Assembly (NCBI GenBank): GCA_964572155.1
Contig: CAZNDZ010000001.1
Span: 782,290-846,289, forward strand
Source: an uncultured Planctomycetales bacterium
GTDB taxonomy: Bacteria; Omnitrophota; Gorgyraeia; Zapsychrales; Fredricksoniimonadaceae
Length of the DNA: 64,000 nt
Direction of reading: 5' to 3'
The first letter of the stretch is position 1. The number at the start of each line of letters is the position of its first letter. A program made the translations under genes and the position numbers. This document shows positions 36-7,095 of this stretch, piece by piece. The notes below the pieces were generated by a model. It was given only the letters and a program-made list of their open reading frames with translations. It was not told where the DNA came from and did no database searches.

Positions 36-341
36 ATGCAAGCACTGCAAGATGCCGTCGCTGAAATCAAGAAGTCTGCGGATGATATAAGCCGTAACAC
101 CAATGATTCGCAATCATCCTTGAAACAAATCATCGATGGTGTCAATCAGCTCTTATCGCGTGAATCTGCGAAGGCAGGGTTAGAAGATTCAATGACGGTC
201 GCGGATCTTTCAGCTCAACAAGCTAAGGACATGGAAAAAGTACATATGAAGTTGGAAGAAATTACCGCGAAAATCAATGCCTTGAAGGAAGCAATGCAGT
301 CATCCGACGTGGTTGTCAAGTCCTGGTTTGAAAGTGACTAA
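36..341 (+). CDS. Hypothetical coiled-coil protein (101 aa from the ATG). Possibly 5'-partial, because the frame stays open to position 3.
   Basis: ORF with ATG at 36. No in-frame stop lies between position 3 and 36, so it may be the C-terminal tail of a gene that begins before the window. Helical, charged sequence with no recognisable family. Sits 8 nt upstream of the next gene. Confidence 0.45.
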   Translation: MQALQDAVAEIKKSADDISRNTNDSQSSLKQIIDGVNQLLSRESAKAGLEDSMTVADLSAQQAKDMEKVHMKLEEITAKINALKEAMQSSDVVVKSWFESD

Positions 342-349
342 TACATATT

Positions 350-1654
350 ATGAAGATTAAAAAACACATCATCTTAGGCGTCATCTTTGCTATGATCATG
401 ATACCGTGTGTCTATGCCGACGTGTATATCAACGTTATGGCGGTTAACGGTTCTGAGATTAAAAAAGAAACGCCGGTAAAGTTTAATTTACCGGGAGATG
501 TAACTGCGGGTGATATATTAGACACCAATGGTTTAACTTTAGATTATAATGCCAACGATGGCAATTATGTTGTTTCAGGCACAGCTACCTTAGATCCCAA
601 AGCATCAAAGACCTACCGCATCCGTATTCGTGATGTATGGAAATTATCACAAGAAGAAACAGATAAAATTAAGAATCAAATCAATAAAGGTTTTGAAGAA
701 ATTGGTAAGCAATTTGATTCAACCCATACGCAAGAATTAAAGGATAGGCTTTTAAAGCGTTTGGATTTGGTTATTGAACAGCAAAATGTAAAGGCAGACA
801 GCATAGAAAAACGCATTGACGCTGCGCGTTCGTATCGCAAAGAGATGCAGCGCATTCAAGATGAGGCATTAGCGGTAGATTACTGGCGTTCACAACCAGA
901 AGAAGTTAAGGCGCAGAAAGCCATCCGTTTAAAAATAGAAGTTGAGAATCCAGCGTCGAGCGCGAATACAAAGGTGAAACAGAAAATCTTTTTGCCGTCC
1001 GAGGTTAAGCCGCAACATGTCTTGGACGCAGCTGGGCTTGAAGTACGCTACGATCAAGCTAAACAACAACCATTTTTGTTCAAAGAAGATGATATTATCC
1101 CAGGTCAGAAAAAGACCTATGTGGTTAGTATTTTAGATATTTGGAATGTTGAAGCAGGGGACATAGAAGGCATGCGCAAGCGTGGGTCCTATGCTTACGA
1201 TTTCTTAAAGAATTCTAAATTTGTTGACACAGCGAAGATGTTGTTCGATAGTGCTAATGCCCATTTAGATGATATAGAAAAATCTCAAGCGGTACCAAAG
1301 GAGATTAAAGAACACATTAGTGCATATCGCGTTAATCAAGAAAGTTTTGAAGCATCACGATCAGACATTGAGAACTTAGAAAAGTTGCTGAATGTGTATC
1401 GTGAAGATCTGGAAAAGAGTAAAGTTAAGAATGTATTGCAAACCATTAGCACCTTTAAAGGTATTGGGGATGTTTCCAAGCAAGTCTTTGAAAAGAAGCC
1501 AACGCCGTCGACAACATGGAATTTTATTGGGTATGTTTTAATATTCGTAGCTGTCATCGCCGTCTTGTATTTCGTTTTCTTAATGATACGTAGCAGCGCT
1601 AAACCCAAAGTGGCTAAAACAGAAGAGAAGCCTCAAGAACAGCCAAAAGCTTAA
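350..1654 (+). CDS. Hypothetical exported protein, tail-anchored in the membrane (434 aa). It has a signal peptide, two ~90-aa internal repeats separated by helical linkers, and a C-terminal TM helix.
   Basis: N-terminal signal peptide MKIKKHIILGVIFAMIMIPCVYA. Repeat 1 (~aa 24-118) and repeat 2 (~aa 190-290) share the pattern LP..V...LD..GL...YD / KTY...I.D.W. C-terminal hydrophobic segment WNFIGYVLIFVAVIAVLYFVFLMI, then a basic tail. No family recognised. Confidence 0.6.
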   Translation: MKIKKHIILGVIFAMIMIPCVYADVYINVMAVNGSEIKKETPVKFNLPGDVTAGDILDTNGLTLDYNANDGNYVVSGTATLDPKASKTYRIRIRDVWKLSQEETDKIKNQINKGFEEIGKQFDSTHTQELKDRLLKRLDLVIEQQNVKADSIEKRIDAARSYRKEMQRIQDEALAVDYWRSQPEEVKAQKAIRLKIEVENPASSANTKVKQKIFLPSEVKPQHVLDAAGLEVRYDQAKQQPFLFKEDDIIPGQKKTYVVSILDIWNVEAGDIEGMRKRGSYAYDFLKNSKFVDTAKMLFDSANAHLDDIEKSQAVPKEIKEHISAYRVNQESFEASRSDIENLEKLLNVYREDLEKSKVKNVLQTISTFKGIGDVSKQVFEKKPTPSTTWNFIGYVLIFVAVIAVLYFVFLMIRSSAKPKVAKTEEKPQEQPKA

Positions 1655-1673
1655 TGCGTTGTTAAGGAGCAAT

Positions 1674-4755: not shown

Positions 4756-4769
4756 TACCTTGAGGCGAC

Positions 4770-5627
4770 ATGGGCAAAGCCAGTAAAGTTAAATATGAAG
4801 TTATGGAAGTCCGTGAGCTCGTCGACCTCGTTCAAGTTTTAAAAGACGTTGCGGATATGAAGTATCACTCGCTGATTGCCCAGCGATCAAAGTTTAATCG
4901 TTTTACAGAATCCTTTACCGATTTCTTTAGTCTCGTCAGTTTCTCAGAAGTAAGACACCCTTTAGTTAATAACAGCACCCCTAAAACAGCCATTTTAGTT
5001 ATCTCATCTGAACGTGGTTTCGTTGGCGATTTAAATACGCGTGTGGTTAATCGTGCTGTTGAAGAATTAGAAAAATTAAATGGTAATGCAGAATTTGTTG
5101 TTATTGGCAAAAAAGGTGTTGGTAAATTAGAGAGCATGGGCTACAAGCTCTTAAAATCATGGGAAGATGTTGAAGACAAAGGTTTTTATGAAATGTCTTT
5201 GGAGATCAAAGACTTTCTAGTTAAAGAAGTTATGGAAGAGCGCATTGGACGTGTGATTGTCGTTTACCCATGGCCTAAAGACTATACCGTGATCAAGCCG
5301 CGTGCCGTTAAATTATTGCCCTGTGAAGATCTTTTGCCGCAGCAACAAGCGAGTGTTGATTTTTTTAAAGAACTGATTGAAGAATCTGATCCTGTCGATA
5401 TGATGGGTTATCTAGCAGATATGTGGTTGTCATCGAAAATATTTGAAATATTTTATGATACAAATTTAGCGGCAGCATCGGCGCAAACCCAGCAATTGGA
5501 TAATAGTTTAGGAAAGATGAAGAAAGAGCGGGAAGTTGTTAAGTTAAAATATCGCAAAGCCCGTCGTGGTGACATTGATAAGAGTTTACGTGAAGTTTTC
5601 TCAGCCAGAATGATGGCGATCAAATAG
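4770..5627 (+). CDS. atpG: F-type ATPase gamma-subunit-like protein
   Basis: 285 aa. TAILVISSERGFVGDLN resembles the gamma motif VGYLVVSTDRGLCGGLN. Helical N and C termini (YRKARRGDIDKSLREVFSA resembles the gamma C terminus). Position between b/delta and beta. Divergent. Confidence 0.55.
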   Translation: MGKASKVKYEVMEVRELVDLVQVLKDVADMKYHSLIAQRSKFNRFTESFTDFFSLVSFSEVRHPLVNNSTPKTAILVISSERGFVGDLNTRVVNRAVEELEKLNGNAEFVVIGKKGVGKLESMGYKLLKSWEDVEDKGFYEMSLEIKDFLVKEVMEERIGRVIVVYPWPKDYTVIKPRAVKLLPCEDLLPQQQASVDFFKELIEESDPVDMMGYLADMWLSSKIFEIFYDTNLAAASAQTQQLDNSLGKMKKEREVVKLKYRKARRGDIDKSLREVFSARMMAIK

Positions 5628-5637
5628 GAGATAGATT

Positions 5638-7095
5638 ATGTCGGAACATGAAAACGTAGCAGCACAACCACCAAAAGAACCTAAATTGGTTAGACCAACA
5701 AATGTGGTCAAGAATACAGGGCGTATTGCTGCTGTGCAGGGACCTGTTGTTGACGTACGTTTTCCCGTAGATGAAGAAGCACCTGCGGTATATGACTGTA
5801 TTGAATGTTTCTCGCTCGACGGTAAACGTATTGTTTTGCAAACATCAGAACATTTGGGGCCAGGTTTAGTGCGTTGCATTTCATTTATGGAAACCTTGAA
5901 CTTGCAATTGGGTTCTCCATGTACGAATATGAAAGAACCTACGGCTATTCCAATTGGTGATGGTTGCTTCGGACGTGTTATGGATGCGGCAGGTCGACCT
6001 TTGGATAATGCAGGCCCTTATGATTGTCCCGAGACGGTGCCTATCCGTAAACCTGTTCAGCAATTTAATTTTGACTTAAAGAAAAAAGGTCGTGAAATTC
6101 CTGAGCTGTTGGAAACAGGTATTAAATATATTGATTTGTTGTATCCGATGATCAAGGGTAGTAAGACAGGGGTTCTTGGGGGCGCAGGTTGTGGTAAGAC
6201 TGTCGTTATTTTGGAACTGATCAACAACATCGTTAAGGCTCACGGTGGTGCGTGTGTGTTTACAGGTATTGGTGAGCGCATCCGTGAAGGTAATGAGTTG
6301 TTTTACGAATTACATGAAGCGCATCTTTTGCCTAAGGTTATGTTGGCCTTCGGACAAATGGATCAACCACCAGGTGCCCGCGCTGAAGTTGTTAATGCTG
6401 GTTTAACCATGGCGGAATATTTGCTTGCGAAAAACAAAGACGTGTTGCTTTTCATGGATAATTTATACCGCTTCATCCAAGGTGGTCAGGAAGTATCGAC
6501 GTTGTTAGGTCGTGTTCCTGCAGAAACTGGTTATCAGCCAACCTTGGCATCTGAAGTTAATGCTGTTCAAGAACGTATCCGTTCGGTTGAAGGTGGTGGT
6601 TCGATCACGGCGATGCAGGCTGTTTATGTTCCTGCCGACGACATGACCGATCCCGCGGTCGTATCTATTTTCGCGACGCTAGACGGTGTTATTGTTCTTT
6701 CCCGTGATCTTGTTCAACGCGGTATGTATCCTGCGATTGATCCTTTGCAAAGCTCTTGTACCAACCTTGATACCAACGTTGTCGGTCGACGCCATTATGA
6801 AATGTCGCAACAGGTTATCCAGCATTTTAATAAGCACAATTCGTTAAAGCGTATCGTCGCTGTTATTGGTCTGGAAGAATTGAGTAAGGAAGATCAGAAA
6901 ATTTATAAGCGAGCAGAGAAATTATACAATTTTATGACACAGCCTTTTACCGTTAGCGAAGTCTTTACTGGTAAGAAGGGTGAGTATGTGAAATTGGAAG
7001 ATAATATCATTGGTTGTGAACGTATTTTACGCGGCGATTACGACCATATGGAAGCCCAAGACTTTTATATGATCGGTAAAGCTCCAAAGATATGA
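5638..7095 (+). CDS. atpD: F-type ATPase beta subunit
   Basis: Beta-type P-loop [18 protein letters not shown] (E. coli: GGAGVGKTV). [17 protein letters not shown] and [11 protein letters not shown] motifs. RBS TAGGAGA. Confidence 0.85.

Follow-up and report, generated by a model that had tools for sequence, protein, structure and literature searches.

We analyzed a stretch of 64,000 nucleotides (64 kb; hereafter, the window) from contig CAZNDZ010000001.1 of an uncultured bacterium that GTDB places in the Omnitrophota. The window begins with a cluster of genes that resemble those for F-type ATPases, which runs directly into genes for a type IV filament. All of the open reading frames (ORFs) that a first-pass annotation of the sequence had listed for the cluster were found on the forward (+) strand at the coordinates that it gave. 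The cluster opens with the C-terminal tail of X, a giant secreted repeat protein whose ORF is open at the 5' edge of the window (3..341), and with Y, a family-specific protein without a Pfam or NCBIfam model (350..1654). These are followed by F1 alpha (1659..3203, if it starts with the TTG at 1659; the start is the ATG at 1674 as called on an identical contig, L001), an epsilon that consists of the beta-sandwich domain only (3207..3512), the proteolipid hairpin of a c subunit (3525..3746), a divergent second c-type hairpin that we call c' (3756..3983), a peripheral-stalk protein, b/delta (4003..4755), a gamma that is full length but divergent (4770..5627), and F1 beta (5638..7095). The stop codon of beta is at 7093-7095, and the next gene, which encodes a GspE/PilB-type assembly ATPase, starts 1 nt further on, at 7097. 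The gene order in the window is X-Y-alpha-epsilon-c-c'-b/delta-gamma-beta-GspE-GspF. Up to beta this is the order that the first-pass annotation gave, but its identifications of X and of c' (described as a 75-aa membrane protein) need to be corrected, as explained below.

The gaps between the genes of the cluster are 1-19 nt throughout, so the block looks like a single operon. The first-pass annotation stopped at 7095, but the operon does not end there: it continues directly into genes for GspE/PilB, GspF/PilC, pseudopilins, GspK, and PilMN. When we scanned for promoters and terminators, the counts were at chance level. The cluster does not seem to be a mobile element or a foreign island, as the composition of the DNA has no break across the window, and decay or pseudogenisation was ruled out by the conservation of the genes. 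Within the main clade of relatives (see below), the median amino acid identity is 81% for beta, 80% for c, 73% for alpha, 61% for GspE, 59% for epsilon, 56% for gamma, 50% for b/delta, 43% for GspF, 41% for the tail of X, and 38% for both Y and c'. Given these high median identities, and because the catalytic motifs are kept in about 70 relatives, strong selection evidently acts on the ATPase genes, which are not decaying. The c subunit is unusually constrained.

The two subunits of the catalytic head are the easiest to recognize. Alpha matches PF00006 (229 bits) and PF00306, and its score against TIGR00962 (514 bits) is above that model's cutoff (484 bits). Its best matches in PDB are bacterial F1 alpha chains (438-465 bits). 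Beta scores 535 bits against TIGR01039, whose cutoff is 463 bits, and its public annotation is "F0F1 ATP synthase subunit beta." The P-loops are GDKATGKT in alpha and GGAGCGKT in beta, as the first-pass annotation stated. The P-loop of beta (residues 181-188) has a cysteine where the canonical motif has valine, and this variant is shared by 62 of 71 relatives. The motifs of beta are kept in at least 58 of the 71, and GERIREG, Walker B, and the arginine finger of alpha (SVSRVG) are all conserved across about 70 relatives. By these motifs, the F1 head (alpha3beta3) is divergent but catalytically intact.

Alpha is shortened at its N terminus. Even with the longest possible start, residue 10 of alpha pairs with residue 22 of 4xd7_A, an ATP synthase alpha chain of 502 residues, and alpha is short of 12-17 N-terminal residues, which are the delta-binding segment. 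(In structures of F1Fo, the N-terminal residues of canonical alpha bind the N-terminal domain of delta.) The b/delta protein, which has 250 residues, comprises one transmembrane (TM) helix and a long helix, as in b, and then the C-terminal domain of delta/OSCP. Residues 10-165 weakly match residues 16-166 of the b chain of Bacillus PS3 (phmmer against PDB). Residues 171-236 match positions 102-168 of the 172 positions of PF00213 (41 bits), and in the comparison to PDB, residues 171-240 pair with residues 106-175 of E. coli delta, which is the C-terminal domain only. This bears out the proposal in the first-pass annotation that b and delta are fused and that there is no free-standing delta. Because only the C-terminal domain of delta is matched, the N-terminal domain is gone. 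The truncation of alpha matches the missing N-terminal domain of delta, which makes for a coherent remodelling of the stalk. The best NCBIfam model for b/delta is TIGR03321, which describes b of N-ATPases.

The rotor is more divergent. Epsilon matches PF02823 at residues 11-83 (25 bits) and pairs with residues 4-82 of E. coli epsilon only. In other words, it has the N-terminal beta-sandwich and no C-terminal helical hairpin, as the first-pass annotation had noticed, and this short form is common to all of the relatives. The C-terminal helices of epsilon are the element that inhibits hydrolysis in bacterial F1. Gamma matches PF00231 over residues 11-278 (107 bits), and its score against TIGR01146 is 82 bits, which is below the cutoff (194 bits). 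More broadly, gamma, epsilon, b, delta, and c are all under the cutoffs of their NCBIfam equivalogs.

The c subunit scores 27.7 bits against PF00137 (above the cutoff of 24) and 19 bits against TIGR01260 (below the cutoff of 44). It carries the RNP loop and the membrane glutamate (FVEAI); the glutamate is found in 47 of 48 family members. Its first TM helix has Gly-Pro in place of GxGxGxG, which is the packing motif of canonical c subunits, and its periplasmic ends are conserved as well. In one distant relative (L064), the membrane glutamate of c (6402-6632) is lost, and Gly-Gly is found there instead.

The first-pass annotation treated the 75-aa membrane protein as a protein of its own kind, and we find that it is a paralog of c. 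An HMM-HMM comparison (hhalign, using hidden Markov models of the two families) gave a probability of 97.5% and E = 8e-12 over 74 columns. Furthermore, the HMM for c matches all 51 sequences of c', and the HMM for c' matches all 48 sequences of c. The loops (RNPSAASK in c and GxxPSKSA in c') are in register, as are the membrane glutamates. The glutamate is present in 40 of the 51 sequences of c'; the copy in the window and its two closest relatives have phenylalanine instead.

The most conspicuous gap in the cluster is subunit a. As the first-pass annotation reported, there is no ORF for it in positions 1-7100 on either strand, and the minus-strand ORFs in that region have at most 126 residues. 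We extended the search in several ways. A Pfam scan of nearly all ORFs of at least 100 residues in the 64-kb window gave zero matches to ATP-synt_A, and a six-frame scan of the window for TM-rich ORFs and for an a-like arginine motif found no candidate. (The remaining content of the window is housekeeping: genes for purine metabolism, Kds/Lpt, trigger factor/ClpP, isoprenoids, and similar functions.) We also built an HMM from four subunit a sequences, namely E. coli atpB and the a subunits of three canonical operons from Clostridia. Across the window and 79 loci from Omnitrophota (1.15 Mb), the best hit to this HMM had E = 0.28, which is not a match. The HMM recovers its own three Clostridia seeds with E = 1e-148 to 1e-158. 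As an independent positive control, E. coli subunit a by itself (phmmer) found all three of the a subunits from Clostridia, with E = 8e-9 to 3e-4. These searches cover the locus and about 10 kb to either side in about 60 syntenic species, and within that scope subunit a is absent.

One ORF that might have been mistaken for subunit a is in L064, where an inserted gene for a 524-residue protein with six TM helices (4850-6421) separates epsilon from c. In Pfam the protein matches TPR repeats only, and it does not match our HMM for subunit a. It is probably a GT-C glycosyltransferase: we take the DD and YHxxN motifs in its N-terminal part to indicate a TMTC-like member of that class.

To see how widespread this arrangement is, we used beta to search the species representatives of GTDB, which gave 78 loci. 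Based on the label of the record or the architecture of the cluster, 74 of the 78 were assigned to Omnitrophota. Many of the labels are generic, such as "uncultured Planctomycetales/Planctomycetia" or, in one case, "uncultured bacterium." The other four loci do not have filament genes; three are from Clostridia/Oscillospiraceae and have subunit a, and one is labelled as Gammaproteobacteria. The identical order, from X through GspF, is found in about 55 species whose beta is 63-96% identical. This answers a question that the first-pass annotation had raised, namely whether the gene order is conserved in related genomes. Two more metagenomic contigs (L082 and L083), for which genes were called independently, have the same layout. 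In a more distant clade, with beta at 47-55% identity, the order is Y-epsilon-c-b/delta-alpha-gamma-beta-(MshEN)-GspE-GspF, and these loci have neither subunit a nor c'. The beta-GspE-GspF and Y-ATPase links survive the rearrangement within the distant clade, so the links of the ATPase to the filament genes and to Y are older than the internal order of the genes. By the same comparison, c' is a later duplication of c.

Of the two genes that precede alpha, X was described in the first-pass annotation as a 101-aa leader gene, but it is not a small gene: no stop precedes it in the window, where its frame is already open at base 3. On the identical contig, the ORF continues for at least 788 residues further upstream. 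(Several contigs end inside X, like the 64-kb window.) In relatives, X has at least 1,400-1,570 residues, as bounded by the 10-kb flank, and on L082 (2-7432) it has at least 2,476 residues. The L082 protein contains at least 170 tandem repeats of 13 residues (GINWNDFGVLSKT), and successive NW pairs are 13 residues apart in 164 of the 169 intervals. The repeats are followed by a linker that is rich in serine, threonine, and asparagine and then by a coiled-coil tail. Conservation of the tail extends through its final residue (...KLEEIxAKIxALxEA...DVVVK[ST]W[FY]ES[DE]), and the copy in the window ends with ...DVVVKSWFESD. One relative (L023, at 2048-4660) has a short version of X, with 871 residues and an N-terminal signal peptide. 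X did not match any Pfam family.

Y has a Sec-type signal peptide and then two modules, each of which combines a seven-stranded beta-sandwich with a helical hairpin. After the modules there is a long helix (residues 319-380), a conserved C-terminal TM helix with the invariant W390, and a short tail that is basic. The mean pLDDT (the confidence score of the structure prediction) of the AlphaFold2 model is 82. By its predicted topology, Y is a periplasmic bitopic protein that is anchored in the inner membrane. We found 133 homologs of Y, every one of which is annotated as "hypothetical." Clustering at 50% identity gives 938 representatives, and some of these are joined to the C terminus of proteins of 1,167-2,029 residues. 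Y always precedes the ATPase genes, and in one member of the distant clade (L068), X and Y form a single ORF.

Downstream of beta, GspE/PilB (7097..8842, +; PF00437 at 432 bits) has an MshEN N-terminal domain (PF05157). Its gene adjoins that of beta in all loci, the rearranged distant clade included. The next gene encodes the platform protein GspF/PilC (8790..10031, +; PF00482 at 192 bits), whose position is conserved. After a metallopeptidase of the MA clan (9958..10860, +; PF13485), there is a set of pseudopilin genes (10881..13297, +), which encode a GspG-like major pseudopilin (10881-11300; PF08334), two minor pilins with the N-methyl motif (within 11125-12269; PF07963), and a GspK-like protein (12275-13297; PF21687/PF03934). 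The set also gives a weak match to PF11612. Further along the same strand are a PilM-PilN fusion (13367-14788; PF11104 plus PF05137), a weakly PilO-like protein (14790-15350; weak PF04350), a TPR protein with matches to TPR families (15343-16083), and a protein of 1,130 residues that has no Pfam match (16116..19508). The genes are co-directional up to 19508, where the gene for the 1,130-residue protein ends and the coding strand switches. This last protein is a possible member of the filament system. In sum, the cluster encodes an assembly ATPase, a platform protein, alignment proteins, and both major and minor (pseudo)pilins, which make up a type IV filament set. Among the ORFs of at least 100 residues in the window that were scanned with Pfam, none matched Secretin, Peptidase_A24, or a second ATPase of the T2SSE type. 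The secretin, the prepilin peptidase, and the retraction ATPase may be encoded elsewhere in the genome.

Loci of this type have been known since 2023. Seymour et al. (2023, Nat Microbiol; PMC10066038) described a "symbiotic" F-type ATPase (sF-ATP) that is co-located with type-4a pili (T4aP) in Omnitrophota. They found ATPase and pilus genes within 10 kb of each other on 57 of 66 contigs, and they described such loci, that of V. archaeovorus LiM included, in every class of the phylum. They considered the ATPase to be non-respiratory and proposed a role in attachment or motility. In their tree, alpha grouped with the type-2/3 ATPases of Mycoplasma, and they noted an association with surface and motility genes. 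In the text of PMC10066038 and in the supplements that were available to us, subunit anatomy was not found, and we found no other paper about it. What we add is the anatomy at the level of the subunits, along with how widely the synteny extends and how old it is. More recently, a 2026 preprint that surveyed 176 complete genomes reported alpha and beta in 125 and a recognisable gamma in only 30, and called F1Fo incomplete. The cluster matches this pattern because its alpha and beta exceed the equivalog cutoffs while its gamma, epsilon, c, b, and delta fall short of theirs. For the class Gorgyraeia, once one small order (Pluralincolimonadales) is set aside, the preprint also reported subunits of V/A-type ATPases in 70-99%. 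Overall, according to published surveys, most genomes of the phylum do not have a complete F1Fo, and the cluster is treated as non-respiratory.

How does the cluster compare to systems that are already described? Like the sF-ATP/T4aP loci, the cluster has F-type alpha/beta within 10 kb of genes like those of type IV pili (T4P) or type II secretion systems (T2SS), and here the distance is 1 nt. The features that we add for such loci are the lack of subunit a, the pair of c and c', a b protein with the C-terminal domain of delta together with a truncated N terminus of alpha, and the partners X and Y. Relative to canonical F1Fo, the subunits alpha, beta, gamma, c, and b and the N-terminal domain of epsilon are homologous, and the catalytic motifs are all kept; identity to E. 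coli is 46% for beta, 36% for alpha, and 22% for gamma. The cluster differs from the canonical operon (atpIBEFHAGDC) in that it lacks subunit a and AtpI, has an extra paralog of c, and has a scrambled order. It also has neither a free delta with an N-terminal domain nor the C-terminal helices of epsilon.

The N-ATPases resemble the cluster in that they have no free delta gene either, and residues 6-234 of b/delta align with positions 12-239 of the 246 positions of TIGR03321. However, all four subunits fall well below the cutoffs of the N-ATPase models (alpha, 475 vs. 750 bits; beta, 450 vs. 752; gamma, 27 vs. 282; b, 46 vs. 225), the order of the genes is not that of N-ATPases (atpDCQRBEFAG), and there is no subunit a. 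Pfam and NCBIfam scans of the ORFs in the cluster did not find an AtpQ- or AtpR-like family. Mycobacteria also have b and delta in one polypeptide (PDB 9vkp, chain d), but that fusion has 448 residues, while b/delta has 250 residues and the C-terminal domain of delta only. The delta-like part of b/delta weakly matches residues 375-443 of the mycobacterial protein (E = 0.29). So, the fusion of b and delta has precedents in both the mycobacteria and the b model of N-ATPases (TIGR03321).

Our preferred reading, to which we give a probability of roughly 55%, is that the cluster encodes a non-respiratory rotary module that hydrolyzes ATP and serves the type IV filament or the giant-protein apparatus, and that it neither synthesizes ATP nor pumps ions. 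The ATPase module would be transcribed as one unit with X and Y upstream and the filament set downstream. The F1 head (alpha3beta3) would hydrolyze ATP, and the shaft of gamma and epsilon, together with a membrane ring of c (plus c'), would turn against the b/delta stalk. Without subunit a, the module would not have the ion half-channels of the chemiosmotic enzyme. Instead, the apparatus in the envelope would draw mechanical work or conformational energy from the rotation, for attachment, for the function of the pilus or pseudopilus, or for the handling of X, as part of a host-dependent lifestyle. We infer the direction (hydrolysis), the rotation, and the coupling partner. Hydrolysis is suggested by the loss of the inhibitory domain of epsilon, by the absence of subunit a from the locus and its surroundings, and by reports that V/A-type ATPases are common in these bacteria. 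The first-pass annotation had offered two options: a strongly remodelled ATP synthase with its gene for subunit a at another site, or a machine of F1 and a c-ring that is put to another use. Of these, the second is better supported and the first less so, because there is no subunit a in about 60 syntenic species, because the linkage to filament genes is constant, and because surveys describe the cluster as non-respiratory.

Several points weigh against this reading. The membrane glutamate of c is nearly invariant (47 of 48), and c matches beta in its degree of conservation; given this, and its median identity of 80%, an a-like partner and the binding of ions would be expected to matter. A stand-alone atpB may be present elsewhere in the source genome; our searches span the locus, the window, and the loci of relatives. 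The sole link of the ATPase to the filament system, to X, or to Y is synteny. And a search for structural homologs gave no clue to the role of Y.

The conservation of c is also the best argument that the cluster encodes a true ion-translocating F-type ATPase or synthase that obtains its subunit a from a gene at another site in the genome, with the adjacency to pilus genes reflecting co-regulation or a local supply of energy. Split atp operons do occur in other bacteria, and alpha and beta exceed the cutoffs for the canonical atpA and atpD equivalogs, in keeping with the public annotation of beta as part of F0F1. We consider a split operon to be unlikely, because subunit a was not found in the 64-kb window or within about 10 kb to either side in about 60 species, because gamma, epsilon, b, delta, and c are under their equivalog cutoffs, and because the regulatory domain of epsilon, the N-terminal domain of delta, and the N terminus of alpha are lost. 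The distant relative whose c lacks the glutamate (L064) is also hard to fit with ion translocation, as are the surveys of complete genomes in which F1Fo is incomplete and V/A-type ATPases are common. Furthermore, in the part of the KO table of PMC10066038 that was accessible, one metagenome-assembled genome (MAG) has alpha (K02111) and beta (K02112) only, without subunit a (K02108); another MAG in the same part of the table has a full F-type set.

A static arrangement would fit the lack of a stator channel: the ATPase would be anchored to the membrane, with the ring of c and c' as an anchor or scaffold, and energy would be passed on by contact with GspE/GspF or with Y. The loss of the glutamate from 11 of the 51 sequences of c', including the copy in the window, is consistent with this, as is the translational adjacency of beta and GspE. 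Yet the whole rotor set (gamma, the N-terminal domain of epsilon, and the RNP loop of c) and a full-length stalk are conserved, which is hard to explain without rotation, and a mere anchor needs neither 80% identity nor a conserved glutamate. A static ATPase therefore strikes us as quite improbable. Another idea is that the cluster belongs to the lineage of the Mycoplasma type 2/3 ATPases and encodes an internal F1-like motor, like the G1-ATPase for gliding in M. mobile, with no function for an Fo ring. Both are F1-derived ATPases that are tied genetically to surface or motility machinery and lack subunit a, and the function that has been proposed (ATP-driven surface machinery) is analogous. 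The tree placement of alpha in PMC10066038 and the association with surface and motility genes also favor it. We find this idea very doubtful, because the canonical models for atpA and atpD are matched above their cutoffs while the four NCBIfam models for the Mycoplasma proteins are not (MMOB1660, 402 vs. 600 bits; MMOB1670, 424 vs. 850; MSC_0619, 303 vs. 520; MSC_0618, 374 vs. 570). In PDB, beta is more similar to canonical F1 beta (409-453 bits) than to 9io5_A, which was deposited as G1-ATPase subunit beta (343 bits), although bit scores are not a phylogeny. Also, beta (485 residues) does not have a long N-terminal extension: it matches positions 229-682 of the 705 positions of the MMOB1670 model and pairs with residues 300-753 of the 784 residues of 9io5_A. 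Finally, the cluster retains c, c', and b/delta, which the Mycoplasma clusters reportedly lack.

F-type ATPases are textbook chemiosmotic enzymes, and to our knowledge, few F1 motors have been recruited to other work: the gliding motor of Mycoplasma and, more distantly, the export ATPases of type III secretion systems and flagella. The bacteria that carry this cluster are ultra-small and are thought to be predators or parasites. Here, it appears that the whole rotor-stator set, including the c-ring, is kept and the ion channel is dropped, in an operon that also encodes a giant surface protein and the machine for a type IV filament. This anatomy also explains why genome surveys repeatedly score F1Fo as incomplete in Omnitrophota. 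Each part of the anatomy (no subunit a, c plus c', a b protein with the C-terminal domain of delta, an epsilon without the inhibitory domain, and the partners X and Y) gives testable hypotheses.

A more specific proposal, which we consider unlikely but worth stating, is that the cluster encodes an ATP-driven counterpart of the proton-driven rotary motors of the envelope (the MotAB/ExbBD/GldLM type), with the ring of c and c' as a pure membrane rotor. The conserved periplasmic face of the ring and the Gly-Pro of its first TM helix would engage the stalk and the C-terminal TM helix of Y, and Y would hold the conserved C-terminal tail of X, the fiber of 13-residue repeats. ATP hydrolysis would then turn or ratchet an extracytoplasmic fiber or a pseudopilus apparatus that grips or attacks host cells. 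If this is correct, then an F-type ATPase would have given rise to a trans-envelope machine of a new class.

Some of the genes around the filament set also deserve mention. The MA-clan metallopeptidase that follows GspF is not a standard component of T2SS or T4P, and it is found directly after GspF on L082 (17356-18183) and L083 (14214-14407) as well. On L083, a pair of genes that resemble an AbiEii/DUF6036 toxin-antitoxin system (11917-12727) lies between GspE and GspF, so the beta-GspE-GspF block tolerates insertions. The window also has three large and poorly annotated ORFs (30803-34033, 38454-43613, and 55642-57852). Those of 1,076 and 736 residues have no Pfam match, and the one of 1,719 residues has only a domain like glucosamine-6-P isomerase/6-PGL, at residues 1075-1211. 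Convergent with the filament cluster, on the minus strand, is a gene for an 822-residue membrane protein that resembles oligosaccharyltransferases of the STT3 family (19503-21971), and next to it is a gene for a trypsin-like serine protease (21988-22674, also on the minus strand). These two hint that surface proteins might be glycosylated or processed. A stand-alone PilZ-domain protein is encoded at 28281-28661, some 9 kb past the end of the cluster. The MshEN domain, which is present in GspE, binds c-di-GMP, and together with the PilZ protein it is a hint that the system is controlled by c-di-GMP.

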